Shown here piece by piece: positions 5,984 through 31,400 of a stretch of 64,000 nucleotides of DNA. Position 1 is the first letter of the stretch; the number at the start of each line of letters is the position of its first letter. A program made the position numbers and the translations under genes. The stretch is from Paecilomyces variotii (lineage: Eukaryota), in NCBI GenBank assembly GCA_004022145.1, contig RCNU01000003.1. One strand, 5' to 3'. The notes below the pieces were generated by a model. It saw nothing but the letters and a program-made list of their open reading frames with translations. It made no database searches and had not been told where the DNA came from.

Positions 5984-7366
5984 GTCCTCTTTCTATATCT
6001 TTTGATATATATTTTTTGCTCTTTCTCCATATTGTCCCCAATGGCGCCCGTTTTTATTATTTTGTCTGTATATTGTTATCACCCTTCCCATAGTCAACTT
6101 AACCAGAATGTAGAACATGAGTCTGACATTTCTGTTTGACCTGGAATAATCATTATTTGTCTCCCCGCTCTTCCGGCACGAGGCCGCACAACAGGCGCCT
6201 GGCAACCACCCTGTCAAGTTGAGATGTCAACCTTAAGTGGAGCGATCACAACAAATTAAAAGATGCACCTCTTGGGAATATCTGAAATGATTCTTCGGAT
6301 AGAATAACCGATGACGTGCGCCCAAATGCGGGCATACAGAGAGCAGTAAACCAATCGAATCCAATGACACTTTGTCCGAGTAAACAGCGAGACATCTATC
6401 GATGCAAAACACCCAATCATATCAAGACAGAGTCAAAGAACGTCCTGCTAATCCATTAGATGCGCTCCTGCCCCCTCGTAAAACCGAATCTGTAAAAGAA
6501 GCTACTACTAAACGGCTCAAAGGACGCTCAAGCCTAGTTTGGTTACAAGACAGAGCATGCATCCATGGAGTGGGCTGTTTCTTTTTACTGTCCAACTAAC
6601 TAGCTAGTATTATTATTACTTTGAAGCGAATAGATAGCGCAGAATGAAATGGAAAGTCGTCGAAAGGAAAATCGGCAAAACAGATACTGAGCATATGCCA
6701 TGTGTACTCCGTGTTGACTGTTCTATATCTCCATATCTCCGTGGGAAATGTATGCATCTGACAGTAGCAGTTTCCGCTCATAAAGTACCACCACGTTCCT
6801 TGTTCGAACCACGTAGCGAAATCCTCTCGAATCATTCTTTATTTATCAATTACTTCCTCTGAACCTATTGTCACCTATACTAGAATACGCGTACGTAACC
6901 AAGCGGGCTATCCTCCATAAGTCTATACTAACTGGGGTAAGGAGATAAGTTAGACCACGTCAAGTCAACTACAAGCTTGCGCCCTAACCTGGCGGGGCAA
7001 AAAGCTTGACAGTGTACCACTGTACCATAATAATTATTGCATATGCTCCGTAGAGCTAATCGAATACCGTAGATAATTGGTTTTTCTAACGACATGAATC
7101 CTCCAACGAGGACAGTAACCCTCTTCTGTCCCACTTTCTCTCAGTCCTCACCGGTATTTCTCCCCCCACTATAATATACTTAGAATCTCAACTAACAGTT
7201 GAGATGAAACAATCCGTTTCTATCGGCCCCTCCCTTGCTAAGAGTCTTGACATGTCCGGACTTCGTGGCAATAAGTTAGTCAACTACGGAGTAGTTAGTG
7301 GAAAGTTCGATCTCGTCCTAACTCGAGCACGGACATGAAGATGGGGAATCACATCTAGTTACCGTA

Positions 7367-7440
7367 ATCGGCCCCTAGTTTCGGACACCGCGCGCAGCGC
7401 GGGTCTGCCACCTCAACATAAATACCCAGCTTAATGTAAA
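7367..7440 (+). repeat. Left terminal inverted repeat (74 bp) of the Fot1-like element
   Basis: ATCGGCCCCTAGTTTCGGACACCGCGCGCAGCGCGGGTCTG...AATGTAAA is the reverse complement of 30698-30771, differing only by transitions. Confidence 0.95.
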
Positions 7441-7948
7441 TCCATATAAAATCTATTACTTTTTGAAGCTTTTAAACCTATTAAATCTAATTAATTGCCT
7501 AATTAAATATAGTGCTATATAGAATAGGATCCCCTTTAGTTAGTCTATATCTTTAAAGCTATCTTCTACAGCTTTATTATCTATTTAAGCTTAATTATTA
7601 CCCGCTTCTATTTAAACTTTAACTTTTATAATATTTCTCTATTACTATCCTTAAAAATTTATAATTAAATATAGTCTATATTATATTTTATTATAATACC
7701 TCTGCGTTATAGAACCTTTTTAAATACTCTAATATAGACTTAATAGGCTAGCTGTACCCTAGCTAAGGCCTTAAACTTCCTCTATATTTAATCTATAATA
7801 TAGGACTAAGCAATACTATTTTTTAATAGTTTTTAAAGCCTATTAATAAAGTAAGCTAAATTAAATTTAAGCTCTAATAAATAATATTAAAACTATTTAA
7901 ATTATTAAGCAATATTTAATATATTATCTAAGATAAATAACCTATTAA

Positions 7949-8248
7949 TATTAAGGTGCAGGCTTAAGAAGCAGGTCAGAATAAATAGAATAAAGTAGTT
8001 AATACTAGGACTAGCTACAGGATCTCTATTTAGCTAATTTAGACTAAAATAGGCTATTATAGGCAGGCTTAGTAAATAAGATATAGTTTAAAAAGCTTAA
8101 ATTTAGATTAAGCTATATATTAAAAATATCTTTATAAGATTATATAATTCCTTATATAATTTAAAAGGATTTAAACCTTACTCTTTTAAATTAAGTAAGT
8201 ATTAGCTAATAGGTTAATTATTCTATTCTCTATACTAATATTATAATA
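7949..8248 (-). repeat. 3' LTR of element A (300 bp)
   Basis: Direct repeat of 13685-13984 with transition-type differences. Confidence 0.92.
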
Positions 8249-9834
8249 ATACTCCCCTTTTTAAGATTAAGCTCTATTAAAATTATTCTTAGGCTTTAGC
8301 TTATTTAAATAGTAGTAATAAAAGTTTATAATAATCTCTTAAATATACTATAAATAATATATAGGCTTTTTAATTAAATTATTATAACTTAATTACTTAA
8401 TAATATATTATAGTTAAGAGCCTTTATACTTATAATATTTTTATTAAGAATTTAAGATATTTTTAATAATCTATTCTTTAAGGCTATTAACTTCTATAGG
8501 CAATAATAAAAATTATCTCTATCTAGATATAGGGTCTTTAGTAATAAGATAGAATAAGCTAATATTAAATATAAGATAGATATATATTAAGGCAGATAGG
8601 TTAAGCTAATAAATATATAGGCTAATAATCTTAATAATATAGAATAAGCTAAGATTCTTCTAATTAAGTTTCTTCTAAAGGCACTAAATATAAATATTCT
8701 AAGTATTTAATTAAATAGACTATTTTATATAATAATAGTAAACTAAGATTTAATAATAATTAATCTACTCTTTATAATAGGCTTAAATAGCGCAGATCTA
8801 GATATAGATATAATCTATAATATCTTATATCTTCCTAATAAAAGCTTTAGTATCTCTAATAATAGGCTAGTTTATAGATTAAATAGGCTTAAATCCTATA
8901 TATAAATAGAACCTATAATTAATAAAAAAAGGTAATACTTTAATAATCTTAGAATAATAAGAGTTTAATATAAACTTAGCTAAAGATAGCTAGTTAATCT
9001 AATTATCTTATAAATAGTTAATATAAACATATAAATATTATTTTAAGATAGCATTTATTTTTTTAATCTAGCTATTAATTTTAGAATAATAGATAATAAA
9101 TAATAGATTTATAATATCTAGATATTAGATTAAGTATTTCTAAAAAGTAATAATAAACTAAGAGCCTTAATTAAATACTATAATCTTTAATAGTCTATAA
9201 AGCTTCTATATATAGTAGATATATAATTATATTATTCTTTTAATATTATAAATAGCCTAATAAAAAATAAAATACTTTATCTTTATAAGTTAATCTATAA
9301 TAATTAATATAATATTATAACCTTAATAAGATATAAGTTTAATAATAAAATTTATTAAAATATCTTATTAAAAATATTTAAGAATAAGAAGCTAATATAA
9401 GACTTTTTAATAGCCTTTATTTAAGGGTATAATATAGCAGTAGATATAGTAATTCTAGGTCTAATAATCTATATATTAATATATATTTAGCTAGTAATAC
9501 TCTTATAAGATTAGATTATAAAGCTTATATTTTCTAAGATATTTAAATATATACTTATTATAGTATTTTTATAATAAATAGGCTCTTAACTTATTATAAT
9601 TAAGAATATATAAGTAGTCTCTATAATATAAATATCTTTCTCTTTATTAGTAATTAGCTAGTATAATCTTAAAATAATAATTAGCTTTATAATCTAAAGC
9701 TTATAGAATAGACTATATTAAGTTATTAAATAAATAAGCTATATCTAATAAATCTTTAATACTAAATAAATACTTTAGTTTATTAAGTATAGTAAGAGAA
9801 TTTAATTAGTTTTATTTAATAGGCTAAGCTACTT

Positions 9835-9897
9835 CTTTAATAAGCTAAATAATCTCTTTAATAGACTAAATTATCTCCTTAATAGGTTAAATAATTT
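9835..9897. repeat. 21-bp tandem repeat x3 in pol of element A (between RNase H and integrase)
   Basis: CTTTAATAAGCTAAATAATCT / CTTTAATAGACTAAATTATCT / CCTTAATAGGTTAAATAATTT. Confidence 0.6.
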
Positions 9898-12800
9898 CAA
9901 CAGATTAATTAGATAATAAGATAAATTAAATAAGATCTCTAAACTAAATAAATTAACTTTTTAGAATAAATTAGGTAAATATTCCTATAGGTTTAATAAG
10001 ATTTTTAATCTCTTAAGCTATTAGATTAATAAAGTAAATATACCTTATTATTTAACTTCTAGTAATAGCTTCTAGTTTTAAAGATCTCTAAATTTATAGA
10101 TTAAGGTTCTTCTTCTTTAAGACTATCTAGCTCTAATATTATAGCTATTTATCTCTCTCTTTAAAAAAATCTTCTAATCTCTTAATTAAGGTATTAGGCT
10201 TTATTTCTTATTTTTTAGGTTAATATATAATTTAGAAGTTAAACTAAGATAAAAACTTAAACTAATAGGCCTATTACTAGTTTAATAGCTTAATTAATAT
10301 AAAATATTTTAAATTATAATAGTCTATAATAACTTTAATTAATAATAATATATCTTTAAGCTTAAGGCGCTACTCCTTAAAACAGCAGATAATTACTAAT
10401 AATTTTTTATTATAAATCTTATAATTATACTTTATAATAGAGAGCTTCTTTAAAAAAAATATAATAAAATATAGGATTTCTCTATTATTATACTAAGATA
10501 TAACTCTAGCTAATATATAATTAAATAAGTTAGTTTTAACTATAATCTTATAGATCTAATTAAATAGCTTTAAGATTAAGGCTTAAATAAATACTTCTTT
10601 TAAGGCTTTAAAACTAGATTAATAAGTAAATATTTAATTAAAGGAAACTCTCTTCTAGATTAAATTTATAAATAATATAATTATTTTAAAAAAGTTATAA
10701 ATAAACTAATAATAAAAATTACTAAATCTAATAAAGGCTTATATATTAATTATATAGATTAAGGTCCTTTAATTAGTAATTATTTTTATCTTATTTAAAT
10801 CTATCTTAATATAGTCTTAGCTAATAATAATACCTAAGAACTTAATCTTAGAGATAATAAACTTATACTTCTAGATCTTTATATATAGGCCTACTTTATA
10901 TAACTTTTATAAGATAATATAAATATATTAAATATATTTAAAATAGATTATACTATATATTAAAATATTATTAAGATATATAATATAAAAAATATTAAAA
11001 TAATCTTATAAGATATTATTAATAAACTATTAAAATATTGCAAATATTTCTATTAAGCTAAATAATATTATTAATAATTTAAATAGGCTAAATTAAGTAT
11101 AGAAGGCAGTTAAGTATTTTTATCTCTTCTTAATATAAAGGTTATTAAATATAGAAATAATATTAATCTTTATAAAATACTTTATTCTTTTTAAATTATT
11201 TAGGGTCTTCTTAATTAAAGGTAAGAGATATTAATCTTTAATAATTATTATATTTAAGGCTTAATAATCTATATAGATCTATATCTCTCTATTAAACTTC
11301 TTAATAAATAGAATTAGAGATATAATAAGTAATAAACTTAGATAAATAAATCTCTTTCTTAAGTTTTCTTTAATTTATTTTTTTAAGACCTTTAATTTAT
11401 TTTAAGATATAATATATAAAGATTTAAAGGAAAGTAACTTTTCTTCTAATAACTTAATATTATAATTATAAAAATAATATAATAATAAGCACTTAGCCTC
11501 TTTAAGAGAAAAAATATTAATATAATCCTTAAACTTTTTAAGTAATAGGCAAGTAAGGTCTTTTTTTTAAACTTATTTAATCTTTAAAGCAATATCTAGA
11601 TTCTCTAGAATAATTATAAATATTTAAATATTTCTTTAAGTATAAGCAGAATAGGCGGCTAAAGAAATAAAGGCTATATTTCTCTCTTTTAGTCCTCTAG
11701 GTCTTAAGGATAAATATTAGGGTAAAGCCTTTAAAGGAATATTATATAAGACAGGTATTTTAATTAGTTTTAGAAGTATATTATAATTCTTTTAATAATA
11801 ATTACTATTAAAAGTAATATTATAAATAGTAAATTATAAATATAGATTATAATACTTTAATTAGGGAAGTCTTAAAATAATAAGATAATATACTAATTAA
11901 ATAATATAAAACTTAGTATTTTTCTTAAAATAATTCTTAATTCTTATATTTATCTAAATATAATATATAATCTTCTTATTTTCTAGTTCTTTTCTATTAA
12001 ATATATATAGAGTAATTAGGCTCTTTAAAGAGATAGGCTTTAACTTCTAATTCTTAGCTTATTCTTAATTTATAAATCTTTATCTTTTAGCTTTAATATT
12101 AAATAGAATATAAATTAATAAATAAATCTTCTTTTTCTTCTTTTTTAATATTATAGGCAATATTATTAATTTTAATTATTATAGATATTTTTTAAGATTA
12201 ATTTTATAAATAGTAGCAGTAGAGATTTAAATAATATATAATTCTTAAGCCTAGCTATAATTTACTCTAGGCTTACTTCTTTTATTAAAGATTAACTAGA
12301 GGATAGATTATATAAATCTAAGAACTAAATTACTTAAAGAGTCTAGGGGCAAGGTTTATATATAGCTATAATCTAGATCTTCTAATAGTTATTTAAATAT
12401 AGATAATCTCTAATATAATATTCTAAAGAGCTATATTAAAAGTAAGTGCTAGTTTTATAATATAATAGGCTATATTTTCTCTTACTCAGGTATTTAAAAA
12501 TATTTAAATCTATTAGGTTATATAGTTATACTAAGGCTAGTTTACTTTTTTATATAGGGCTTCTCTAAGGCTAGCTATTATATCTTACAGCTAGAGCAGG
12601 ACTTAGAATAAGTAAAAAAGATTAAATATATTAAATAAATCTTAAAATAGTAATATAAGTCTTTATAATAAAGAGCTAGTTTATAATATATTAATAATAG
12701 CAGTTTTTAAGATCTTATAAGAATTTAATAAATTAATAATATTTATAACTTAGAGGCTAGCTATATAATAATATTTCTTAAAATTTTTAGCTAATAGCTT

Positions 12801-13684
12801 ACTTTAATAGAGTAAATAATATTTTTTTAAGTATTTCTCTTTTTAATACTAAGTACTAGAACTTAATAAAAAAGATTTTAAATTCTTTATTAATTTAATA
12901 GAGATTAAATAATTTATTATATATATTATTTATATAATTAGGGTTATTAAATATATACTTTAAAATATCTAGAATCTTTTAATAATTATTAAGAGTATAA
13001 ATCCTATCTCTAATATATAGTAATATTTAAATATAGAGTATATTCTTTAAGCAATTAATTATATAAGTTATATAGCTTTAAGGAGTTAAAAATCTATTTT
13101 AATTAATTATTATCTTCTCTTAAATCTAGGCTATAAAGTGCTAAAGGTTCTTTTAATTACCTTTAAACTTATCTAGATTAAAGAGTTTCTTTAAAAATCT
13201 AAGGGTAAAGAAAGATATAATAATAAATATTTTAAATATTCTTATTAAAGTAGCTATAGGCCTCTTAATATTAGGCTTAAATTTAAATATAAATAGAAGT
13301 ATATTTATAGTAGATATAACTATATAATAGGCCTAGTCCCTTTTAAAGATAGTTTAAATATACTGCTATTCTTTTTTTTAGAGCTAAATCTTTTAATATT
13401 ACTAAATAGCCTTAAGTTTAATAATTTCTTATTTAAGTCTCTATTAAATAATAGTAAATTTTTATTAAAGCTCTTAAAAATATATTTTAATCTAATAGCT
13501 TATCTTATTTATAATAGTCTTAGCTTTATTAATATATTTATATATTAAGTAATAATACTTATATTATTCTAGCTTATAGCTAATAATAATATATTTAATA
13601 AACTTATCTAGGGCAGTTAGTAAGAATAAGGAGATTAAGGCAGATATTATTAATAGTATTAACTCCTAGATAAAAGCTATATAA

Positions 13685-13984
13685 TATTAAGATATAGGCT
13701 TAAAAAGCGGGTTAAAATAAATAAAATAAAATAGTTAATATTAGGACTAGCTATAAAATCTCTATTTAATTAATTTAGACTAAAATAAGCTATTATAAGT
13801 AAGCTTAATAAATAAGATATAGCTTAAAAAGCTTAAATTTAGATTAAGCTATGCGCTAAAGATATCTTTATAAGATTATATAACTCCTTATATAATCTAA
13901 AAGGGTTTAAACCTTACTCTTCTAGATTAAGTAAGTATTAGCTAGCGGGTTAGTTATTTTATCCCCTATACTAGCATTATAATA
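13685..13984 (-). repeat. 5' LTR of element A (300 bp)
   Basis: Direct repeat of 7949-8248. Confidence 0.92.
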
Positions 13985-14159
13985 ATTAATAGATTAAAAA
14001 ATAGCAGGTTTATTATCTATTTCCTAAAGCTTTTCTAATATAATATTTAGATTATATAGATAAAGCCTAATCTTTATAAATATATATTTAATAATAGAAG
14101 ATTTAAAGATCTTTCTTTATATAGATTTAAGCATTTAGAGGAACTTATACTTACTAAAC

Positions 14160-14303
14160 TAATAGGGGTTTATATTGAAGATATTCTTATTAAAGAGTTA
14201 AAGGAGATTTTAAGATCTTAAGAGTCTAAGTATAGGAAATCATATAATATATTATATAACCTATAGGTTATATAACCTATTAAAGGGGTATTTCTCTATA
14301 ATA
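14160..14303 (-). repeat. 3' LTR of element B (144 bp)
   Basis: TAATAGGGGTTTATATT...ATTTCTCTATAATA, repeated at 29475-29614. Confidence 0.9.
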
Positions 14304-17300
14304 TTTACCTCCTCTCTTAAAGAAACTTATGCCTATATAGGGTCTTAAGAGTTAAAATAGAAATTATAAATTATTATCCCCTATTATAGAGAACTATAAT
14401 ATACTATTAAAGGTTATAGCTTATAATAAAAAGATAAAATAAATAAGATATCTTAAAAATATATTATAAAGTTAACTATTTATAATATAAGTAAGTATTA
14501 ATAAGTATAAGCAGATATACTAATATAAGTTGCTAATTATAAATTAAAAAAATAAGCTAAAAGAATAAAAAGAATAGAATATTAATTTAATACTTTATAA
14601 AGCTATTAAGTATTAAAATAATATTATATCTATTAATACCTTTAAGTTTAATTACCTTTTAATAAAGTTTATTAAGAGAAATTATTATATTAAATATTAT
14701 AGCCTCTCTTTTAACTAGAGTTTTATTTATAAGATTAATTAATAGAGTTATAATATTATTAAAATCTTTAATCTTCTCCATTTATTTATATTTAGTAATT
14801 ATATTATTAATAATATTATCTCCTAATATTAAATTAATAATTAGAGGCTAAGGTCTATTATAATAATAAATTACTAATTAAAAATCTATAGCAGTAATAA
14901 TAATATCTAGTTAAAAGGTCTATTCTAGCTTAATATCTATATTATTAGCGTTAATATAGTCTCCTATTATAATTATTAAATTATTCTCTAATATATTTAG
15001 TAAGATAATATTATTTCTTACTATAATTATTAAATTATTTTTTAATCCTAGCGAATTATTCTCTTAAATATAGACCTATAAATTAGGGTAATTATCTTAA
15101 AGTTTAGTATAATAATCTAGTATTATATTTCCCTTATTATTTAATAATATAGCGTTAATATAATTTTAAGCTAGTTATTTAATATTAGATTAATTACCTA
15201 ATCTTTTAAATATAGCCTAAATAAAGGTTAATATATTTAATACTTTAATATTAAAGATAATAAATTATAAGTTGCTTTTTTCTCTATTTATACCCCCTGC
15301 AATTATATAAAGCCTAATTTTAATAGTATAAGCCTATCTTTCTAGATTATAGGCAGTTATCTACTAGAGCTTCTTATTATTATTAGTTAATATAAGTTCT
15401 ACTATAATATTTATAATATTTACTTTTTTTATTATATTAGCTAAGGGTATAATTTACTCTTACTTATCTATAAACTAATATATATATAGTTTTAGCGCGC
15501 CTCTTATAATATAGAGATATATATTACTTCTTTCCTTATAATATACTAGTGTTTTTAATTTTAAAGGAATTAGATTATTTCTTTAAATTATTATATCTTT
15601 TTATTTATATTAAGATTTTAGTCTTTCTAGGCTAATTAAATAGTCCTTTTAAATATAACTTACCTATATTCTATAATAAGACTCTAATTTCTTTAATAGT
15701 ATTAGTTCTATAAAGTATATCTATAGATTCTATCTGCTATTAATAAATATCTCTATATTTCTCTTTATAATTACATAATTAATATTCTAAGATTCCCGCT
15801 GCCTATTTATATATATATAGAATATTATTAATAAGGTAAATATCTTTAAAAGAGTTTTAGAGATAGTAATATTATTAAATAGCTCTTTAACTAAATATTT
15901 TATTTCTTTCCTTATATTATTAGAGAACTTATCTACTAAATAGAAAAATACTCTTTTTTCTATAAATAAGTTATTATTCTTAGATTCTTATATACTATTA
16001 TTATCTATTTTAACTAATTATTAATAAGATATAGTAATTAGATTAAGATAATATTAAATAAGGTTAAGTTAGATATTTAGCAGAGAATAAATATAAGTAT
16101 TAATACTATTTATTTATATAATTAATCCTTATATTTAACCTTATTAATTAATCTCCTAGTAAGGTTTAATTATTAAATATAAGAGAATTTAAGGCATTAG
16201 TAAATTTAATAGATATAAAAGAATTAAGGTATTAGCGGCTTAGCCCTAAATAAAAACTATATATAGATTATATATAACTATTATTATAAATAGCAGCTTT
16301 AGCTTAGCTTAATAATAATAGCTCTAAATAATATAATTTGCTTAGCTAATTATTTATATTCTAAATAATACTATTATTATACTTAGCTTATATAATTATA
16401 CTCTTTTATCTTTTATAGACCTGCGATTAAAGGCTATAATACTTATTATCTTAAATAATACCTACTATATTTAATAGTTATCTTTATACTAATTCTATAC
16501 TCTAATACTTTAAATAATATAGACTATACTTAGTAATATCTTTAATCCTATACTTATATAGATTTAATTATTAAATAGATTAAGTATAAAGAGATATTTT
16601 TATAGAATTTTTTAATAGCCTCTAGTATATATATTAACTTTTTTACTAATACCTAGTATTAGCAGATAGCCTCTAAGGCATATTATAAATAGTATACTAA
16701 TTTCTATATATTTTCCTAGTTATTATAGCCTCTTTATTTAATTAAATATTTTAGTATTTTATTATAATCCTTTATATTAAAGATTCTCTTAACTTCTTAT
16801 TTATTATATTACTTAATATTATCTAATACTTATACTAGCGGCTCTAGTTATAGTTCTAGGTATATATTACTTATTTTCTAAGGAAATAGTAATAAGATAT
16901 AGAAAATAAGATAAATTTAATAAAAGCTAGAAAATTTAAGTCTATAAGCTTAGGAACTAACCTTTAATATAATTTTAAATAGATCTCTTCTCTTACTATC
17001 TAGTTTCTTGCTTAGTCTATTTATTTAAAGATACTTAATATTTAATAGTACTTTATCGCTTACCTTAAATTATATGGAAAAATTTAATTAGCGCTTTAAA
17101 GTATAATCTTATAAGAATAGTAAATAGTTAATAAGATCCTTATATAATATATTTATATTCTCTATAAATTTCTATATATTTAAGTCTCTGTTTATTAAGA
17201 CTTCTATTAAAAATAGCGGTTTAAAATAATATCTATAGTAAATAAAGAATAGAGATAGGTTTATTATTACTCTTCTAATATTATTATATATATATTCTGC

Positions 17301-18924
17301 TATTAGCAGTAAGTAAGCCTAGTTATCTTGCTTCTAACTAGTAAATATATATAAATATTATTCTAGTATCTAATTAAATCTTTCTATTACTCTATTTATC
17401 TATAGATAAAAAGCTATAGACAGATAATAATTAATATTTAACACTTAAAATAATATCTTCTAGAATAGCAATATAAAAAGAAAGCTCTAATTAGATATAA
17501 TAGATATTTAAAGGCTATATAACTTATAAATAGTATTAATATAGAAATAAGTAAATATCTCTAAGTTTACCTTCCTAGAGTAAGTAGTAAAGTATACTAT
17601 ATAGCTAAAATAATTAATAAATACTAATATAATTAAGCATTTAAGCCTATAAATATTAATGCTTTTTAATAGACCTATTATAAAGTTTACTGCTATATAA
17701 TCTTATAGTCTATTAAAGATTAAGAGTATTATAAGCTCCTTATAAATAAGTTTAGCTGCTTTTAATCTTTAACATATTAAATAGCCCTATATAGTCTTTA
17801 ACTATTAACGCTAGCTTTAGCTAAAATACCTATCTATAAATTTTATCTATTATTACTTTCTTATTAAAATAGCCTCTTATATAAGAATTATAAAATTACT
17901 TTAATACTTTAACCTATAGCTTAATTATTAATATATAAACTTTTATTCTATTATAATAATAAATTTAATCTATCTCCTTTTAATAAACCCCTAGCTATAA
18001 ATTTATAACTGCTTTAGTATTATTATTATAACTTTATCTAATCTTATTTTATAAGAATAAGTTATTTATAGAACTTATATAAATATCCTCTTATAATTCT
18101 TATATTATTGCTTATATATAATAATAGCCTTCTTAATATTATATTGCCTCTAAGCGCAGTAATTATATTAGGGTATTATTTAATATCTGCTATAATTTAT
18201 AGTTATTCTGTTTAAATAAATTATTTACTAAATTCCTCTTTTTTAATTAATATCTAATATAGAAATAAAATTATACTAAATATTTTACTTATTTTACTTA
18301 TTTTTATATTAAGATCTTTATTATTAAGAAATATTTAAGATTATTATAGTTAGTTAGTACTTTAACTAGCTTACTTATACTAATTAGAAAGTATTATTAA
18401 ACTTTAAATATATTAACTATAGTAAATAATTCTTATTTATATATTAGCTAGTATAATTCTATATTAATAAATTTTATATTATAAAAGGCAATTAAATACT
18501 AGATATTATCTTTAAATACTTAGTTAAAGATTACTAATTATATAAATCTATTAGTATTTATTTCTAAAATTTATAGTCTAATAGCCTTAAAGTACTATAA
18601 AAGCAATATTTTAATAAAATATTCTTTAAATTTTTAGAAACTCTTATCTATATCTTTATTCTATATAAAGAATATATTCTGTTTAGTAAATCTTATTATT
18701 AGCAAAATAATTTAATTATAATATTAAATAAAACACTTATAAAAGTTATAGAATCTTAAAAAGTAAACTAATATTAATATAGAGATAGGTATAGGCTAAC
18801 TAGTAATTATCTTTAAATAATAGCTATTTATTACTACTTCCTCTAGTATTATAATAAATCTTAAAAATTTAATTCTTATTATTAAGAACTTATATTTTTC
18901 TAGCTTATAAAATAGTTAATTTTT

Positions 18925-19347
18925 TATTATGCCCCTAGCTTCCCGCTAGAGTATAAGCTCGCAGGACTATAGTAAAGCCCTAAATCTAAATGTAATACTA
19001 AGGTAATTAGTTAAACCTCGCTCTCCCTGCTTTTAGGATTTATATAAGATAAAGCTAAGAAATGCTTAAGATTTAGAATATAAATAAGCTTTAGATTACT
19101 ATCTTGCTAGAAGTTAGTAATCTATTCTAATATTATATATACTTTATTATTTCCTTACTTATATAGACTCTTTATTACTAAACCCCTTTAACATAGACTT
19201 TTCTCTATATTAATTAGACCCTTTATTATAATAATTAACCCTTTATCTTATTAATAGATCTTTCTTTAAGCTAAATATATAAAGTAACTATTTCTTTTAT
19301 TATAATTACTAGCAAAATAATTTACTAGTAATCTCTAAGAACCCTTA
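18925..19347 (+). repeat. 5' LTR of element C (423 bp)
   Basis: Direct repeat of 26013-26435. Confidence 0.92.
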
Positions 19348-22300
19348 TTTTTTATAGTTTAAATTACTTAACCTAGTAATATAAGTAGCTATATTAATAT
19401 ACCCTATAATTTAAGAGATAAGGGTCTTAACTTTTAGCCTATAATATATATTCTAAAGGGTTTAAAGATTATTAAATCTAGCTTATAATAACTAATTACT
19501 AAAGCTAGCTTATAAACCTTAAGAGATACTCTAATAGATCTAGAGAAAGATTAACCCTAAATAGAAAATAATCTATTAATAAAGAGAGACCTTTTATAAC
19601 TTCTTACTACTACTTATATTAGTAAGTAATTAAGGCTTAAGCTGCCTAAACTATAGAGGTATAAAGCTACTATACTTAATATCTATTATTAGTAGTATTA
19701 GTATATAGATAAATATCTAGCCTATAATACTTTATTATTTAAAATAGAAGATAAGAAGGTTATTTATACTGCAGCCTTATTAGATAAGGAATTAGCTTAA
19801 TCTTAAATCTATTAGTAAAAGGATTTTAATTTTTAAATATTAATCTAGAATAGATTTAAAAGTTAATTATTAGATTTATTTAATAATCTATATTACTAAG
19901 GATAAAATATAATAAATTACTTTTATACCCTAACTTAATATTTAAACTAAATTATTAGAGCTTTTCTATACTATTTTAAATAAGCTTATATAGAGCTAAA
20001 CTAGGATAAAGGATTTAATAATAATAAGATTATTTAATCTTATATTTTCTATATAAAACTATAACTTAAAGTTTAGATAAGCTTACTGAATTATTAAGAT
20101 TTTTTAACTAACTTTAATTAATTAGTATCTTTAGCTACTAATTAGGAAATAAACTAAAAGAAGAATAAACTTTTAAACCTTTTTATTATATTAAATATAA
20201 GTAGATTAATATAGAGTATACTAAAAGACTCTATCTTAAGATAAAAGAGAAAAAAGATTAATAATTAATATAAGGGGATAAATAAATTTTAAAAAAAGAA
20301 GTTTAGATTATTAATAAAATAAGATTAGCTTAAAAAAAAAGGCTATTATTTTAATTATAGTAAAAGAGGCTATATATAAAGATTTAAATTATATTTAAAA
20401 AAGAAAAATCCTTTTAAAAAAAGAAAGCTTAAGATTATTATAGCCTTTTATAATAAAGGGTTTAAAATAAATAAAAAGTCTTTATATACTCTAATATAAC
20501 TCTACTTACTAAATAGTATATTTAAAGATAAGGCTTTTATTAATTTAGGTTTAGCTTAATACTATATTAGCTTAGATATAGCTATATAATATAGAATTCT
20601 TCTAGATTTCTAGCAGTATATAAATATTAAATCTATTAATAGATATAAGATTTAAAAATATAGATTTTTTAAAGTAAAGATTTATATTACTAACTCTAAA
20701 AGAATTATAAAGAAGGTAAATATATATTTTTATATTATCTTAATACCTAGATTATTTATTATTTTTAGAAAATTATAGCTATATACTATAAATCTTATTA
20801 TAGATTAGAAGTTAATAATTTAAAGATATTATATTCTATAATAGCTATAGATAAAGATTAAAAATACTTAATAATTCTTTAAGATAGTAAGAAAAAAGAT
20901 AATTTATATATTTTATAGGGATTAAATTAACCTTATTATTTTAAAAAATCTGCCCCTAAAATATAAAAAGTATATAAAGGTTTTCTTAAAGGAGAGAGTA
21001 AATATATTACTTACTAAAATAGATAAATATAAGATTAAACTCTTAGATAGTATAGCGCCTCTATAAGAGAAATTTTATAATCTTTTTATTAAAAAACTTA
21101 ATATTTTATATAAATATCTTAAAGATATATAATAAAAAGAATAAATATAACTATTAATAAGTTCTATAAGGGTATTTATTCTATTTATTCTTAAAGCAAA
21201 TAATATACTAAGGCTTTATATTAATTATTAAGCCTTAAACAGTATTACTATAAAGAATAGATATTCTTTATCTAGGGTAAATAAAATGCTTAATTAATTA
21301 ATTAGCTCTAAGATCTTTATTAAGCTTAATCTTAAGAATATCTATTATTAGATTAGAATCTGCTATAGAGATAAATAAAAGATAGCTTTTTAAACTTATT
21401 ATAAGTATTTTAAGTATTTAGTTATATTATTTAGCCTATATAATATTTCTGCTATTTTTTAAGCTTATATTAATTAGGTATTATAGAGATTATTAGATAT
21501 TTATTATATTATATATTTAGATAATATCTTAATTTTCTCTAACTTTATTAAAAAGTATAAAAGATATATAATATAGGTCTTAGAGAGATTATAAGAATAT
21601 AAATTATATATAAAGTTATCTAAATATAAATTCTATAAAAAGAGAATTAAATTTCTTAGTTTTTTTATAAGAAAAGATAGAATAAAAATAGATCTTAGTA
21701 AAATAGAAACTATTAGAAATTAACCGGAGCTTAAATTTTTTAAAGAAGTCTAAGTCTTCTTAGGATTTACTAGTTTCTTTAGAAGATTTATTTATAACTA
21801 CTTTATAAAGACAGCTTCTTTAACTAGTCTACTAAAAGGAAGCATCTAAGGGAAGAAAATTAAAATATTTATCTAAATTAAAGAAGCCGCAAAAATATTT
21901 AATAAGCTAAAATTAGCTTTTATAACTCTGCTAGTATTAAGGCATTTTAATCTAGAGAAGCTAATAATATTAGCAACTAATATTTTAAGATTTACCCTTA
22001 CTACTATACTCCTTTAAGAAGATAATAATAAGATAGCTCTAGGTATTAAAATAGAGATAGGTCTAAGAATTAGAATCTAAATAGATTAATAAATTATATC
22101 TAAGAACTGGCATTTTATAATATATTATGCCTAAAAGTTTATTAAAATAGAGATATATTATAAGGTTTATAATTAAAAACTCCTAGCTATTATTAATACT
22201 TTTAAATATTAATATTATTATCTAGAAGGTAATAAATACTTTATATAAGTATAGAGTAATTATATAAACTTATACTATTTCTTTATTATAAAGATATTAA

Positions 22301-25300
22301 ATAATAAGTAAGCTTAATAAGTAGAACTATTAGCAGTATATAACTTTTAAATTAAATATAAGCTAAAATAGCTTAATACTATAAATACCCTATTTAGAAG
22401 AGTAGATTTTAAACTATTTAAATTTAAATCTTAGATAGAATTATTTCTAACCCTCTAGAAAAAGCTTTAATATAAAGCTTAAGATAAGTATATATAAAAA
22501 GGCAGTCTAAAATATAAACCTATTAAAGTGGGCAATATAGATAGTCTAGAATATTTAATATAAAGAATACTAGTTATTAGAATAATTAAAAAAGAGTCTA
22601 TTTAGGATATTATAATCTCTAGCCTATTCTTTATATTAAAGCAGCTTTAAGTAAAGAATACTTTTATTTTAGAAAAAATTAGGGAACTAAAAGTATATAT
22701 TTCTAAAGATAGCTTAAAGATAATATAAAAAATAAATAATAAAAGACTATTATAAAAGAATAATACTATATTTATATTAAATATACCTACTATAAAGTAA
22801 GAGCTTCTTTAAATATATTATAATAATCTTTATATAAAGCATTAAGATATTAAGAAGACTAAAGAACTATTTTAAAAAAGATTTAACTAGCCTAAAATAG
22901 CACAGGATATATAAAAGTATATATCTATATATAATATCTGCCAGAGAAACTAAACTCTATAGTATAAGCTATATAAAGAGCTAAAATCTTTGCTAATCTT
23001 AATATAGCTATAATAGAATATCTTAATAGATTTTATAATAAGACTACTGCTATTAGAGAAATAAAGAGTTACCTATAATTTAATATTAATAATTATAGAC
23101 TACTATTTAAAGATAATATTCTATATCTCTATTTATAAAATATTAAAGGCAGATAAGATAACTAACCTTATTATAGATTATATCTATAACTGTTTTAAAC
23201 CTCTATAGTTAATTATATTAAATAAAGATACACTATTTATTAGTAAATATTAAATAAAACTTTATTACTATATTTAAATTATTAGACTTCTAAATACTAT
23301 ATTTTACCCTTAAATTAATAGCTAAACTAAAAGATAGAACTAGACGCTAAAATATTATCTTTAGGTCTATTTAAATTATAAGTAAGATAATTAGGTATTT
23401 TTATTAATTATAGTAGAATTTATATATAATAATTTAATCTATACTTCTATAGATATAACTCCCTTCTATATTATTTATAAATTTAATTCTAGGAGTTAGA
23501 ATAAATATAATTTTAGGGAGTAAATAGATATACTAGTAATTAATAATTAATTAAAGGAACTTACTAAAATATATACCTAATTAGAAGAATTTTTCTAAAA
23601 GGCTATTATTATATAATAGAAATATTATAATAAGAAGTATAAGTCTAGATTTTATATAATAGAAGACTAAGTCTACCTTTTAATAAAGAACTTAAAGACA
23701 GATTAATTAATTAAAAAACTAGATATAAAATACTTAGGACTCTATAAAATTATAGAGAGAATTAGAATTTAAGCCTATTAGCTTAAGCTCTTAAAGAGCC
23801 TAGATAGAATATATCTAGTCTTCTATATCTCTCTATTAGAGCCCTATTATTAGAGACTTAGGGCTAAACCTAAATATCTAGACCTAATTTTAATAGATAA
23901 TAAATTAGAATAGGAGATTAAGGCCATTCTAAATAAATAGATAATATAGAGGAAGAAGTAATATTTAATTAAATAAAAAGACTATTTAGATTATAAAAAT
24001 TTATAGCAGCCTAAAGAAGATTTTAAATATATTTAAAATATATTAGCTAAATTTAAGGCAATAATATAAGCTATTAATAAAATCTCTTTAAAAAAGGCTT
24101 TAAGAAGCTTTAGAAAAAGGAGCCAATAAAATTAGTAAGATTTCTCTTTTTTTTTATTAGGTTTTTAAGTTTTATTTAACTATTTTATTGTTAAATCTAT
24201 ATTACTCTTTCTTTATTTATTTATTTATAAAGGTTTAAGAATTTTAATAAAGATATAAGAAGCTAATCTATTTAAAAATAAATTTATTTTAACTAAGCTA
24301 CCCCCAGTAAAAATTAAAAATATAGGCCTAAGATTAATTCCTTTACTTATCTACTTTACTATTATAAAACTCTATTAGCATAGATTTATTTTTTTCCTTA
24401 TTAGAGAAAGAAAGAATATTATAAATAATATATATAATTTTTTATATATACTATAGATCTAATACTATTAAATAAAATAATCTAAATAACTTCTATTAAA
24501 GCTATATTATAAACTATTTATATAAAAATAAGGTTAATAAAATAATAAATATAAGCTTATCTATATCTGTTTTAATAAGCGCTTTATATAAGTATATCTT
24601 TATAAAGGATTTATATTTATTATAGGCCTTTTTAAAAGACCTATAGTTATCTAAGAGATAGGCCTCTTAACTAAGGCTCTATAAATAAATAAGCTTATCC
24701 TTATAAATTAATAAGACTAAAATATAGGGCTTATATTTATAATTATAATAGTTACACTTAATATTAATATTAATATAAGTGCATTAAAATACTAGATTCT
24801 TAATTAGCCCCTTTAAATAGTAAAGATATATCTTTTAAAATATTAAAAAAAACTCTTTATTTAGCCTAAAAGTAATAGGGCTATTTTTATTATTATATCT
24901 GTAATAATAATAATAATAGTCTTAACTAATATCTTAATAACAGCTAGTTTAGTTTAGGTCCTTATATTAATAATCTTTTTATACCTAATACTTTATTTTT
25001 AGGGCCTTTTAATAATATAAGTAAAAGTTATTTTTAACTTATCTATAGCAGCTAGCCTAGTAATAAAATAGGTTTTTTTCCTTTTAAATAGGCTTTTTAA
25101 TATTATTATTAAAAAAGAAAGATTTATTTATATAATTATTAGGACTATAGTAAGAGATTAACTTAATAAAAATATAAACTAAGTATGCCTTAATTCTAGC
25201 GCAATATTTATCTTATCTAATAAATCTTTTATAAGAGAATCTTTACTAATAAATAAAGATATTAATCTATTAATAGCTATAAAAGAAGTAATACTTATCT

Positions 25301-26012
25301 AAGAAAATATTCTCTCTAGTATTATAATAGCAGCTAAAGTTCCTAATATCTTAATAATAATTAGGGGATTATTTTCTAATATTATAATAATAACTAGATT
25401 TAGCTATATTATAATAGCAGCAGCTATATCTTTTATCTTAAAGGCAGAAGGAGGGAATAGCTCCCTAGAAGAGGAGGTAATATCTTTAAACTATTAATAC
25501 TATAGAAATTAGCATATAATATAAAATCTTATACTAAAATACTTACTTAAGAAGTCTTTTTATACTACTTAAATATAAAACAAATTTAAGGCGGTATTAT
25601 TTAAATTAAATTAGCTTATATTAATATAATTAATTAAAATAACTTACTCCTAGAGCAGGAAGCTTTAAAAACTAATAAAAAAATAACTGATTTCTTAAGT
25701 TTAATAAACTACTATATTATTAGCATTATTACAATCTTAAAAATATATTTAAATCTTTATTTAAATATATTTAAGACTAGGAGCTATATATAATAAAAGG
25801 TAAGAAGATAATTACTAGGGGTTAGAATTCTAACCTTATAATATTATATAAATAATACTTTTAGCTTATATAATTTTTTAATCCTTTACTATAAAAGTAG
25901 TAAAAAGCTTTTTTATTTATTATACTATAACTCTCTATAAAACTATATTCTATATTTAATATAATAACTTTATAATAGCTCAAGGATAAGCCTTTAAAAA
26001 GAGGGAGAATAC

Positions 26013-26435
26013 TATTATACCCTTAGCTCCCTACTAAGATATAAGCTTATAAAACTATAATAAAGCCCTAAATCTAAATATAATACTAAGGTAATTAATT
26101 AAACCCCGCTCTTCCTACTTTTAGGATTTATATAAAATAAAGCTAAGAAATGCTTAAGATTTAGAATATAAATAGGCTCTAGATTGCTATCTTACTAGAA
26201 GCCAGCAATTTATTTTAATATTATATATACTCTACTATTTCCTTACTTATATAGACTCTTTACTATTAGACCCCTCTAATATAAACCCTTCTTTATACTA
26301 GTTAGACCCTTTATTATAATAGTTAACCCTTTATCTTGCCGGTAGACCCTTCTCTAAGCTAGGTACACAAAGCGACTACTCCTTTTATTATAATCGCTAG
26401 CGGAGTAATTTACTAATAACCTCTAGAAACTTCTA
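26013..26435 (+). repeat. 3' LTR of element C (423 bp)
   Basis: Direct repeat of 18925-19347, preceded by a polypurine tract. Confidence 0.92.
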
Positions 26436-27290
26436 TTCCTTATATTTTTAAGGAAACTTTTTAAGACTGCCCTAATATATTCTATATACTCCTATTTATT
26501 CTTGCTAAAGATTAATATATTATTTAAATAAACTATATAATACTTATTAATATACTATTAGAGTATACTATTAATAAAAGCTTAAAAAATTACTAATATA
26601 TTATAAAGTCTAAATAATATTATTAGCTATTTAAATAGGCCTCTTCTAATATAAAATACTATCTTTTACTTATAACCTTTAGCTATATAGATTAAATAGT
26701 ATACTAAATATAAATTTAACCTTATAAATATCTTAGCTCCCTTAATATAGAGGAAGAGATTATCTATTATAGGGACTAGATACTTATTTTTTAAAATATG
26801 CTTATTAAATACTCTATAGTTTATATAAAGTTATAAATTTAATTTTTCTAATTCTAAGGGTATTATATTTATTCTTTTAATATTTACTGCTTTTATATTA
26901 GTACTATTAATATTATTATATTTAAAAATAAATAATAAAGGTAAACTATAGAGAGCTATAAATAGTTAAATAATTCTATAATATAAGCTATTATTAAGAA
27001 AACTATTAAATATTTCTAACTCTTATTCTAATAGGTAATAATATAGTCTATATAATATCTTTACCTTATCTATTAGATTAATTTTATAATTAATACTTAG
27101 TTTCTATAAAGATAGAGCCTATGCTTTCTCTTTACTAAAGACTTAAGCTAAGTCTATATATTATATTAGTATTTCTATAGTTTTAGTATTTTCTTTATTC
27201 TATAGGTTTATTACCGCTAAAAGTAATTTAATCCTTTATAATAAAATAAAACCTTCTCTAGGGTTATTCTCTATAATCTAATTAAAATCT

Positions 27291-27410
27291 TCCTCTAGAT
27301 ATTATTTCTTTAAATTAGAATTCTCCTTTAAATGCTATTTTTTTAAATTAAGATTTTCCTCTAGATATTATTTTTTTAAATTAGGATTCTCCTCTAGATA
27401 CTATTTCTTA
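27291..27410. repeat. 33-bp tandem repeat (~3.6 copies) in pol of element B between protease and RT
   Basis: Units start at 27291, 27324, 27357 and 27390 (TCCTCTAGATATTATTTCTTTAAATTAGAATTC-like). Confidence 0.85.
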
Positions 27411-29474
27411 ACTAATTATTAAGTAATATAACCTTATTCTTAATCTATTATTAGGTTTATCGCTATTAGCTATAAAAGACCTAGAATTAAATTAAATAAT
27501 ATTAAAATTATATAAAATATATAGAGCTCTATCTTATTACTTAATATAATATAGTAGAGTTTATAATAATATTTAGTTACTAGTATTAATTATATATTAT
27601 TTATATTAGAAATGCTAAGAAATAATATAGGACTTAGGCTTAATTATATTCCTTAAATTCTACCTATTACTATAGTATTTATATAATTAATATTAGCACT
27701 GCTATTAATAAGGGCTATTAATATTATTATATTATCTATATAAAATAAAGCTATAATTAATATTATAACTATTATTTATTTAAAAGGTAATATATATAAG
27801 AATAAGGTATTAATTATATTAATCTTAATATTACTAATAACTACTAGTAATAATATTTACTAATTTATATTAAGCCTATTAAAGGGGGAATAGGCCTATT
27901 TCCTTATCTTCTCTTTTAATTTTTTAAGGAAGAAGTTTCTACTGCTTAAAAAGCCTTAAAGTAATATTTTTTTAATAGCCTTTTTTATTACAGTATAAAT
28001 ATAATCCTTTATTTTAATATCTTTTTTATTTATTATTAAGGAGTAAATACTTCTTATTCCTTTTAGAAGGCTAAAAGGAGTAATATTAATCTTATCTATA
28101 GCTTTAATCTTATCTATAGCCTTATTATAATATATCCTATAGCTCTTATTATAGTAACTAGCTATAATCTTATTATCTACTTATTTAATTCTATTTATAT
28201 TATTCTTATAGAGATAATTCTAAGTATCTTCTATTTTCTTATATATAGAGCTCTGCTTATTATATTGCCTATTTTTATTCTATATATAATATTAATAAAT
28301 AAGTAAAATATCTCTAATAGATTTCCTAAGCAATATATAGTATTAATTTTTAGCTAAATATATTACTAAAAGCAGTATTATTTTAATTTAAGTTAGCTAT
28401 AATTATTTTAAAATTATTTATAAAGTTTTAGAGAGATTAATTATATTATTAATAAAGCTTAAATATTTTTTATACTGCTATAATATTTATATTAGCTAGC
28501 CTATAATAATTAAGTAGTTATTATTATAGCAAGGTATAGTTTATAAAAATTAACTCTTTAAGATTATTAATTTTAAGCATTATAAGTCTTTATTTAATTT
28601 ATCTTTTTAAGTATAAATATAAGTATAATGCGCGTTCTTTTATATTATATAAGCCTTTATTATCTAGCTATTTATTAAATTTAATTATTTAATAATATAG
28701 TTCTTCAGAAGAACTATTAAATAGTTTAAGATATTAGAGCTTAGATTTCCTTAATAATATAGAGGTTAAGATTATACTTAATCTACTAGATATATAGCTG
28801 CTAGTCTATTCTAACTAATTTAAGAAACTCTAGGCTTATTAATTTTATATAATAATATCTAGCTATCTTTAAAGTTCTTATATTAAATTTCTCTACTATT
28901 AGAGTTATTTTATTATATTTATTATTGCTAAGTCTGCAGTTTATCTTATTAAAACTTTACTCTCTTATAATTATCTTATTAATTTAAATATTCTTACTAT
29001 AATAATATAGAATATTAATAGCTTTTATATACCTACTAATTATTTATTATTAGCGTTACTATTATTATCTATTATAGGCCCTTATATTATTTTAGATTAT
29101 TAAGTATTTTATTACTATTAAGTATACTAATTCTATAGTACTATTTTACCTCTATAAGTATAGGTTTAGCTTAAGTCCTAGATTACTATCTTACCTAACC
29201 TTATAATAACTATTAATTAGTCTTAATAAAGTCTTATTATCTATAGCTAAGGGCTAACTCTATTATTATATAATTTATTACTATTTATAAGTTATTATAA
29301 TAGCTAGTTTTACTTATAAAAATCTCTCTCTATAATTAATTATAGCCCTCTATTATATAATATAATTTCTTATAATAAAATATAATTATTTATAATTTTT
29401 AAATTAAGTTCTAAGAGTTCTCTAATAAGACTATTATAATTAATAAAAAAAAATTAATAAGAATAAGAATATAA

Positions 29475-29614
29475 TAATAGGGGTTTATATTAAAGATATT
29501 CTTATTAAAGGATTAAAGAAGATCTTAAGATCTTAAGAGTCTAAGTATAAGAAATTAATATATTATATAACCTGTAGGTTATATAACCTGTTAAAGAGGT
29601 ATTTCTCTATAATA
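29475..29614 (-). repeat. 5' LTR of element B (140 bp)
   Basis: Direct repeat of 14160-14303 with a small indel. Confidence 0.9.
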
Positions 29615-30697
29615 TAAACTTAGAATTACCTATTTTTATATTAAGATTAATAGCTTTATTATAGTAGTATTTAAATGCTTAAAAAATACTAATATCTAAT
29701 AGTTAGATTAAATAACTAGTATAAGGCATTAATATAAAAAAGAGAATCTTCTTTTTTTTATAATAGTTAAGTACTTTATATATTAAATAAGAGCTATATT
29801 TATTATATAAAAAGAGGCAATAAGTCTCTTACTAATAATAAGCTAACTAGTAATTAAAGTATTATATCTACTAATAGACTAAATAGTTATTTATATATCT
29901 AGAGTTAAATACTTTAATTACGGCATTAATATCTAAGAGCTTAAATTATTCTGCCTAGATATACTTACTAACTAGAATAATAAAGAGAGAAAGCATTAAT
30001 CTATTAATACTAATTATTTTAACTATAATAACTTTTTAAGAATTAGTATAATTATTTATATATAGCTTTTTTTTCCGCTCTAGGGTAATAATTTAATAAT
30101 CCTTTTCTTTTTCTATTTAAAAGCCTATCTTATCTATATTATAGAGATTTGCAGGTTATATATATAGATTAATTAGTATTTATTTATAGCGGTAATACTA
30201 GTCTTATATATTATTTAAATAATAAGCCCTTTTTCTATCTATATTAAGTGCTTATTGTTTTTATATAAATATCTTAAGATATTAAAAAAGGAACTATTTA
30301 AATTAATATTAGCTAATTCTTTATAAAGGTATTAAGGGATTTTAATAAGCTTAAGCTAGGATTATATTTATATAACTAGCTATTATTTTTTATATTAGAG
30401 ATAATCTAACTATATCTAAGCATTTAATATATTTATAGATAATAAGCTCTTAAGTTAGGGAAAATAGTTAATTTATTAGAGATCTATTAAATTATAAAAT
30501 ATAACTAAGATAGTAAGATTAAAGATATAAATAAGGCATATTAAACTAATGCGCAGCTTATATAAGATTAAGATTTAACTGATTAGATAATATAGATAGG
30601 GCATATTAAATCCTATTTTTAATATTATTATAGGATTTAGATATTATAGTAGACTATAAATAATATTAGAAGTTAAAATTTAATAAATCTTAATGAT

Positions 30698-30771
30698 TTT
30701 ACATTGAGCTAAGTGTTTGCGTTAAGGTAGCAGACCCGCGCTGCGCGCGGTGTCTAAAACTAGGGGCCGAT
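30698..30771 (-). repeat. Right terminal inverted repeat (74 bp) of the Fot1-like element
   Basis: TTTACATTGAGC...CAGACCCGCGCTGCGCGCGGTGTCTAAAACTAGGGGCCGAT followed by TA. Confidence 0.95.
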
Positions 30772-30794
30772 TAGTTAACCGATAACACTATCTA

Positions 30795-31400
30795 CGGAGT
30801 AGCGTGTTAAAAATTCTGGCGCGCACTAGTAAATTTGGCTGTAATACCCTAATACTCTAGCTGCTAATTATTTCCTTTTATAGGGTAATTAAAGCTATTC
30901 CCATTCATCATCTGTAACATCCTTAATATCCTTATATTCCTCCTACTCAGCAGTTAAACCAGCTAAGCCAGCTAAGCCGGCTATACTATTATTGTAAGGC
31001 GCAGGCCTTAGCAGTGCCCTGTAAACCCCCGGGAACTCTAGCTATTAGGCTATATAGTTCAGTGCTGGCTTAACTACGCTTAGGCATAGTTATTGTGGTC
31101 TTTTTAGCTGAGTGGTTAAAGGATCCAATTTACATAACCTAGAGCCAGTTAGGTCCTTAACAGCTAATACAGTCGCTGGCATAGTTGCTGGCAGTAGTGT
31201 TTGTATAGACTATAGAGTAGTTAGGAAGGTCTAGGATATAGAATATTAATCCAAATAGCTTTATATTTAATAAAAATAGTAGAAATAACAGTTAAAAGCA
31301 ACTATCAGCGGTATAGTTGTAGATAAAACAAATGATGAGTTGTAATCGGAATACAACGCTAGTGCTGGCGATCCGCCAGGATTTTTGACACGCTACTCCG
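30795..31400. mobile_element. 606-bp non-autonomous TIR element (MITE/deletion derivative, Tc1-mariner-like), lightly RIP-mutated
   Basis: 27-bp TIRs CGGAGTAGCGTGT(T/C)AAAAAT(T/C)CTGGCG at 30795-30821 and 31374-31400 (2 transitions). TA on both sides (30793-30794, 31401-31402). Confidence 0.85.

Follow-up and report, generated by a model that had tools for sequence, protein, structure and literature searches.

The stretch of Paecilomyces variotii DNA analysed here, hereafter the window, comprises 64,000 nucleotides of contig RCNU01000003.1 (NCBI GenBank assembly GCA_004022145.1) and contains an AT-rich block between positions 7367 and 30771. GC content in this block is about 18% (about 0.16-0.23 at 8-30 kb), compared to about 0.41-0.57 outside. 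The block consists of a small DNA transposon, here called the host, and three retrotransposons with long terminal repeats (LTRs), named A, B and C. Very probably, it represents one dead 1,904-bp transposon of the pogo/Fot1 type, which holds A, B and, within B, also C, and which was mutated afterwards together with its inserts by repeat-induced point mutation (RIP). Our data establish the anatomy of this nest, the families of its elements, their relative order and the RIP signature.

The outline of the block is set by a pair of terminal inverted repeats (TIRs). Self-comparison of the window revealed two inverted arms at 7365-7445 and 30693-30773 (81 nt, 85% complementary), three direct-repeat pairs and otherwise nothing notable. 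The outer 46 nt of the arms agree at 43 of 46 positions and are found at two sites only in the window, compared to a chance expectation of 0 based on shuffles. If the sequence is reduced to purines and pyrimidines, which makes the comparison blind to transitions, the match extends over 92 nt (97.8%), with the left TIR at 7367-7458 on the plus strand and the right TIR at 30771-30681 on the minus strand. The right TIR (30681-30771) is matched in both codings, and the outer part of the left one (about 46 nt) is GC-rich and barely mutated. Directly outside of these ends, the two copies of a TA target-site duplication can be read from the sequence (7365-7366 and 30772-30773), bracketing ATCGGCCCC...GGGGCCGAT, and the host therefore shows the combination of TIRs and TA target duplication that characterizes pogo/Fot1 elements. 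Under the one-element reading the empty site is implied to be ...CTAGTTACCG-TA-GTTAACCGATAAC... with a single TA. The flanks beyond the host are alike, with TAGTTACCG-TA on the left (7350-7366) and TA-GTTAACCG on the right (30772-30790), and the empty site would form a short imperfect tandem repeat TAGTTACCG TAGTTAACCG, which may be due to chance or to a target preference.

Within these limits, transition-blind self-comparison identified the LTRs of A (7949-8248 and 13685-13984, minus strand), of B (3' LTR at 14160-14303 and 5' LTR at 29475-29614, minus strand) and of C (18925-19356 and 26013-26444, plus strand). Each element is flanked by a 5-bp target duplication that was read directly at the junctions: ATTAA for A (7944-7948 and 13985-13989), TAAAC for B (14155-14159 and 29615-29619) and a perfect TTTTT for C (18920-18924 and 26445-26449). 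In consequence, A spans 7949-13984 (6,036 bp), C spans 18925-26444 (7,520 bp) and B covers 14160-29614 including C, which divides it into a 3' part (14160-18924) and a 5' part (26450-29614). Excision of all three inserts leaves 582 + 170 + 1152 = 1,904 bp of host DNA, and the lengths add up to the complete block (1,904 + 6,041 + 7,935 + 7,525 = 23,405 bp). Once the inserts are excised, B regains an exactly continuous reading frame across the C site, as does the host transposase across the B site. In the case of B, the reverse transcriptase (RT) can be followed by eye across the excised C (...AVLKSFL|KNXLFYKLEKYKF...), and since it reads straight through this site, C must have entered an intact B. 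The nesting further implies that A and B arrived in a host already present and that C followed B, and it orders these steps only.

These results agree in most points with a first-pass annotation made from the sequence alone, which had proposed an AT-rich block bounded by one TIR pair, a remainder of about 1.9 kb after excision, the duplications of A and B, and an order in which A and B entered an existing host at sites about 170 bp from each other, followed by C after B. The arms are indeed unique in the window with TA on both sides, the remainder was recomputed with all parts summing to the block length, both copies of ATTAA and of TAAAC were found in place, and the order follows from the nesting. 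For C, the annotation had given the imperfect duplication TTTTT/TTCCT, which has to be replaced by TTTTT/TTTTT: the transition-blind match of the C LTRs stops exactly at 19356/26444 with TTTTT directly after it, so that the earlier C end was placed about 9 nt too early.

All three inserts combine an LTR pair and a short target duplication with a purine-rich tract that adjoins the 3' LTR on the strand of the respective element, as expected for Ty3/Gypsy retrotransposons. Pfam scans, in which stop codons were read as X, detected RT_RNaseH_2 on the minus strand of A (E 4e-9) and RVT_1 (6.7e-12), SH3_Tf2-1 (1.3e-9), RT_RNaseH_2 and Integrase_H2C2 on the plus strand of C. On the minus strand of B a weak SH3_Tf2-1 was the sole match (E 0.0011), and the plus frames of A and the minus frames of the 5' part of B had no match in Pfam. 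The best intact relative of the C pol gene is the protein P0002 (E 7.6e-96, 97% query coverage). To deal with the mutated codons, we used a RIP-aware alignment that scores each codon via its possible pre-RIP ancestors with probability-weighted odds, which keeps chance scores low. Aligned in this way, A matches aa 22-1018 of P0002 in one frame from 11608 to 8243 with a score of 1084 (44-48 in the other frames), and C matches aa 11-1014 from 20890 to 24135 with a score of 1242 (52-55 in the other frames). After excision of C, B follows aa 3-636 in one frame from 27262 to 17737, crossing the C site, and continues after one frameshift with aa 424-1016 at 18326 to 16596. This frameshift, located at 17737-18326 between RNase H and the zinc-binding part of the integrase, is the sole frame break seen in the three pol genes. 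The domain order RT, RNase H, integrase is thereby found in all three elements, in C by the order of the Pfam domains, in A and C by one-frame alignments and in B in two frames, using P0002 and P0003 for comparison. In total, pol extends from 12124 to 8243 in A, in one frame, and from 20584 to 24135 in C; in B, the 5' part contains the gag/protease region and the RT up to the C site, and the 3' part the end of the RT, RNase H and integrase. Even with transition-blind coding, the three inserts are dissimilar at the nucleotide level apart from one 137-nt stretch of the RT at 77%, and they therefore represent three different families.

The proteins P0002, P0003 and P0004 all carry a Pfam Chromo domain behind the integrase SH3 domain, and we used these chromodomains as probes for RIP-aware alignment, which placed their best matches directly past the integrase. 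With P0002, P0004 and P0003 as probes, scores of 86, 90 and 67 were obtained for C (23890-24099) and of 82, 81 and 41 for B (16823-16629), compared to a background with a median of 28-30 and a maximum of 38-52 over 39 other frame-segments. The end of the A integrase (8491-8294) scored 48 and 49 with the first two probes and gave no top hit with the third. The Tyr...Trp...Tyr positions are kept in A, B and C, with the Trp codon now reading TAA, i.e. TGG after two G-to-A changes.

Besides these domains, B and C contain extra DNA between the chromodomain and the 3' LTR (2.3 kb at 14304-16595 in B and 1.9 kb at 24136-26012 in C), and A contains none. The sense frame of both regions has the fewest stops (65/763 in B and 54/625 in C, about 8.5%, similar to the known coding frames) and the first codon positions are purine-rich, which suggests that the two regions may derive from a third open reading frame (ORF). 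A comparison of the extra region of B with that of C gave no signal over other frame pairs. Another peculiarity of B is found at 27280-27409 in its gag/protease region, where a 33-nt unit is present in three to four tandem copies that are 77-88% alike.

The identity of the host itself comes from its transposase relic, which is distributed over three pieces: H1 (interior 7459-7948, minus strand), presumably the C-terminal tail of the transposase together with untranslated DNA, H2 (13990-14159, minus strand, 170 bp), a part of the relic just past the catalytic domain, and H3 (interior 29620-30680, minus strand), which covers the DNA-binding N-terminus and the catalytic DDE_1 core. Transposases of pogo/Fot1 elements contain the motifs DETG, DGHSSH and H..QPLD, and a six-frame scan of the excised host that allowed for RIP-compatible ancestors found all three in the right order in one minus frame. 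The first catalytic Asp lies in DKIG (30134-30123, from DETG), the second in NKYSSY (29804-29787, from DGHSSH) and the third in YLI*LLD (29714-29694, from H..QPLD), all on the minus strand, and 35 residues separate the second from the third acidic residue. A degenerate pattern of the last two motifs matched 117 loci in metagenome contigs, 25 of them with ORFs of at least 450 aa. Pfam detected DDE_1 in all five of the metagenome ORFs scanned (E 5e-18 to 2e-34) and HTH_psq and/or HTH_Tnp_Tc5 in four of these five.

Using these ORFs as queries, the relic can be followed across the insertions. In a tblastn search of the unedited window, L062 matched with aa 153-334 at 30155-29616 (E 1e-11) and with aa 334-377 at 14158-14027, i.e. 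in H2, beyond B and C. In the excised host, aa 153-377 of the same protein form a single alignment that spans the B site (80 bits, E 6e-20), and all of the 12 queries (out of 25) that reached E <= 0.001 span the B junction. RIP-aware scores of six queries were 254-420 in minus frame 1 and 39-56 in the other five frames; after shuffling of two queries, 30 times each, the scores averaged 44 (sd 7, maximum 73). If the B junction was displaced by 1 or 2 nt to either side, the score dropped for 24 of the 25 queries. The N-terminal DNA-binding region precedes the core without a change of frame and scored 84-105, compared to 29-55 in the other frames (four of four queries). The host thus shows, via alignment to DDE_1 proteins, a DDE_1 domain with three ordered acidic residues and, with all four queries, a CENP-B/psq-type helix-turn-helix at the N-terminus, two features of pogo/Fot1 transposases. 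The frame of H3 with the fewest stops lies on the plus strand and was ruled out, as DDE_1 proteins align to the minus strand. Searches with the C-termini of the transposase queries also drew low-complexity tblastn matches to an A-rich coding-like stretch at 54400-55900 (AT skew 0.26-0.36), which is unrelated.

The A site is crossed less clearly. One alignment (L079) extends into H1 up to 7596, and the summed score of the 25 queries is highest for the in-frame join (6129), followed by the shifted joins (5927-6030) and by the host without H1 (5887). The assignment of H1 to the same element is mainly due to its TIR, the total length and the clean duplication of A.

Several observations weigh against this reconstruction. 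Pfam found no relevant family at E <= 1 when H1, H2 and H3 were scanned with masked stops in all frames (18 in total), phmmer with the wrong-strand frame of H3 that has the fewest stops returned 0 matches among 1.84 billion representatives, and word-indexed protein searches with the plus frame and then the minus frame gave no match at E <= 10. The identity of the transposase is hence based on our own alignments to 25 metagenome ORFs, found with a pattern that combined known pogo/Fot1 motifs with residues of the relic itself. At the A junction, 3-9 of the 25 queries prefer a shifted join, and the C-terminal tails of four transposase queries scored 36-51 over a background of 24-43; continuity of the transposase across the A site appears weakly supported. 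As to the retrotransposons, Pfam Chromo failed to match the short end of any of the three integrases, even with a cutoff of E <= 10. With one probe, the chromodomain score of A does not exceed the highest background values, and another probe yields none. Apart from these points, a scan of metagenome contigs for the 25-nt TIR core gave 0 matches.

Judged from the alignments, B and C clearly have an integrase chromodomain and that of A is borderline, so that B and C are classified as chromoviruses and A is probably one as well. The first-pass annotation had described three chromodomain retrotransposons and a continuous DDE_1 relic, and it had proposed in silico excision followed by a profile search for DDE_1. 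What stands is the Ty3/Gypsy nature of all three inserts, the chromodomain of two of them and a single minus-strand frame across the B site; the chromodomain of A and the continuity at the A site are the weaker parts of these claims. The excision itself worked, as the frames close, and Pfam stayed silent on the relic. Taken together, the host appears to be of the pogo/Fot1 type, with metagenome ORFs as the relatives used.

The likeness of the flanks beside TA (...TAGTTACCG-TA and TA-GTTAACCG...) would also be compatible with outer repeats that stem from two elements or from a member of another superfamily, e.g. a Mutator-like transposon with a 9-10 bp duplication (TAGTTACCG / TAGTTAACCG). We consider both variants highly improbable: the three host pieces total 1,904 bp, and single DDE_1 transposases can be traced through them collinearly, on one strand and without a change of frame, from about aa 9 to about aa 508. 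Moreover, the look-alike flanks are positioned asymmetrically to the ends of the repeats, unlike a 9-bp duplication, and TA fits the family.

The low GC content of this nest can be ascribed to RIP. The TpA/ApT ratio is 1.2-1.4 in the block and 0.70-0.77 in the flanks, and (CpA+TpG)/(ApC+GpT) drops to 0.16-0.5, compared to 1.17-1.24 in the flanks. Nearly every difference between paired LTRs is a transition. In A this holds for 40 of 40 differences; in C it holds for 73 of 77, where the four transversions are due to an alignment reaching 8 nt beyond the true LTR end, and in B for 9 of 11, with one 4-nt indel in addition. If transitions are ignored, the paired LTRs match completely (100%) over 305 nt in A and 433 nt in C, and at 97.2% in B (indel); a shuffled control in the same coding had no match of at least 80 nt. 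The block thus combines the hallmarks of a RIP relic, i.e. C-to-T/G-to-A changes only, loss of CpA/TpG, an excess of TpA and a drop in GC content. Sites of CpA+TpG amount to 15.1 per kb in the host interior and 6.6-10.4 per kb in A, B and C, compared to 93 in the TIR tips and 134 in the flanks. Within the host interior this depletion shows no gradient over the 1 kb from B to the right end. Since the mutation is uniform up to about 90-100 nt from the ends, the host itself must have been recognized as a repeat, and since RIP stopped about 90 nt short of these ends, the AT-rich block ends at the TIRs. In P. variotii, RIP with a CpA bias was shown experimentally and AT-rich regions with about 20% GC were attributed to mutated Tf2-type retrotransposons (Urquhart et al., 2018; PMC6300479).

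The history of the locus would then have started with a cut-and-paste element of the pogo/Fot1 type, equipped with TIRs of about 90 nt, a TA duplication and a transposase gene on the minus strand. A and B would each have inserted into this gene, 170 bp apart and each making a 5-bp duplication, and C would later have entered the RT of B. Finally, RIP would have turned nearly all CpA/TpG into TpA across all four elements. As RIP makes transitions only, the order of the elements, the junctions and the frames stayed intact. Raw LTR identity is 92% for B, 87% for A and 83% for C, which is opposite to the nesting order; such a mismatch is expected if RIP, and not time, caused the LTR differences. 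In this context, the 144-nt LTRs of B may have been poorer RIP targets than the 432-nt LTRs of C. The indel in the B LTRs, compared to transitions alone in those of A and C, fits B as the oldest insert.

The host is not the sole transposon at this site, as a second TIR-bounded element of about 610 bp lies at 30793-31402, 21 bp from the right host end. The arms of its inverted repeat, each of 29 nt (93% complementary), are 552 nt apart and end in TA, and it contains no long ORF and no retrotransposon insertion; GC content of the region is 0.34-0.49 with an excess of TpA. This element may be a partly RIP-mutated Tc1/mariner-type relic that resembles a miniature inverted-repeat transposable element. 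Its tips are two of the six copies of the 9-mer TACGGAGTA in the window (7285, 30793, 31394 on the minus strand, 33298, 45276 and 46940 on the minus strand), compared to an estimated expectation of about 0.5 on both strands. One copy is located 73 nt outside the left host end, and the copies other than the tips may be stray ends of the same family. On the left side of the block, a tRNA-Pro is located at 5890-5983. The ORFs of the right flank matched no Pfam family, which leaves the label 'mdm12' given to one neighbour unconfirmed.

Transposon DNA harbours all three LTR insertions of the window, and the approximately 40 kb of GC-normal surroundings showed none. One way to explain this pattern is that RIP first hit the small transposon and turned it into heterochromatin methylated at lysine 9 of histone H3 (H3K9), a mark that was then read by the chromodomain integrases, so that a 1.9-kb relic grew by positive feedback into an island of 23 kb. 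The first-pass annotation had likewise proposed that one small element seeded the island. RIP relics reportedly direct heterochromatin in Neurospora. In line with such seeding, A, B and C have chromodomain-like ends with the Tyr-Trp-Tyr positions kept, and RIP targeted the host independently of its inserts, with uniform mutation and no gradient from B. Furthermore, group I chromodomains form an aromatic cage that reads H3K9 methylation (PMC3605345). On the other hand, nothing at the locus places RIP of the host before the arrival of A and B, and the LTR divergence shows only that RIP acted after each insertion. CpA/TpG sites are slightly more frequent in the host interior than in the three inserts, the second TIR-bounded element 21 bp away has received no insertion, and the duplicated target sites, possibly AT-rich from the outset, are uninformative. 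On balance, we regard seeding as doubtful. In its general form, a single RIP-mutated DNA transposon of 1.9 kb might suffice to nucleate H3K9-methylated chromatin and to attract chromodomain integrases, and AT-rich islands of this mould might grow from tiny seeds, a generalization that we also consider rather unlikely. If seeding were true, the locus would offer a recent and datable test case with readable junctions and with LTRs of A and C that are free of transversions.

Alternatively, A, B and C may have integrated nearly at random, with selection purging insertions into genes and sparing those in dead DNA, so that the nest would merely reflect survivorship. The flanks are gene-dense and GC-normal, and nesting is described as common in the RIP-affected AT-blocks of Leptosphaeria maculans (PMC3105345), a pattern for which no special targeting is needed. 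Two independent insertions within 170 bp of a 1.9-kb target and a third one inside an insert, however, form a tight cluster, intergenic DNA of the same window is free of insertions, and the chromodomains favour some targeting. Survivorship on its own is a tentative explanation with chances similar to those of seeding. Most likely, both influences contributed: chromodomains may have steered the retrotransposons to H3K9-methylated chromatin on repeats that were already mutated, and insertions into dead DNA are simply tolerated.

Independent of this question, the locus represents ordinary biology seen unusually clearly, as a complete four-layer nest in a fungus with experimentally active RIP, and it is a clean place for asking whether chromodomain retrotransposons seek RIP-mutated DNA. 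It also holds a warning for annotation: RIP hid a full-length transposase from Pfam and from a word-indexed search in the correct frame, and the transposase frame and its homology are recoverable by discounting transitions.

Fot1 itself has a length of about 1.9 kb and 44-bp TIRs. Like Fot1 of Fusarium oxysporum and DTF_Elwe of L. maculans, two representatives of the Fot1/pogo group within the Tc1/mariner superfamily, the host is an element of about 1.9 kb with a single ORF, TIRs and a TA duplication, and its transposase combines an N-terminal CENP-B/psq-type DNA-binding region with a DDE_1 core containing three acidic residues. In contrast to this group, the TIRs of the host are long (about 81-92 nt) and the copy is mutated past recognition by Pfam. 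For comparison, DTF_Elwe has 2,173 bp and 57-bp TIRs and is listed as Fot1-Pogo in the L. maculans report (PMC3105345). The inserts resemble fungal chromoviruses, exemplified by MAGGY of Magnaporthe and by the Tf2-type Tn123 of P. variotii, with regard to their LTRs, 5-bp duplications, polypurine tract and the order protease, RT, RNase H, integrase, SH3 and, borderline in A, chromodomain; in P. variotii, AT-rich regions of about 20% GC are known to stem from RIP-mutated copies of Tn123 (PMC6300479). Among the inserts at this locus, B and C are set apart by their 2.3 and 1.9 kb past the chromodomain, which A lacks.

As a whole, the block is reminiscent of the AT-blocks of L. maculans, which have been described as mosaics of RIP-mutated nested transposons (Rouxel et al., 2011; PMC3105345). 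In that genome, DNA transposons, with a 2.2-kb Fot1-Pogo family among them, are the invaded partner in 23.3% of the cases and the invader in 3.5% (PMC3105345), and here, too, a DNA transposon is the invaded partner in a RIP-mutated mosaic. Unlike these nests, the present one belongs to a mould of the Eurotiales and is unusually clean, with no truncation, with all eight ends and four duplications present and with reading frames that are restored by excision. It is therefore a new and very tidy case of a type of nest already described in RIP-affected fungal genomes.

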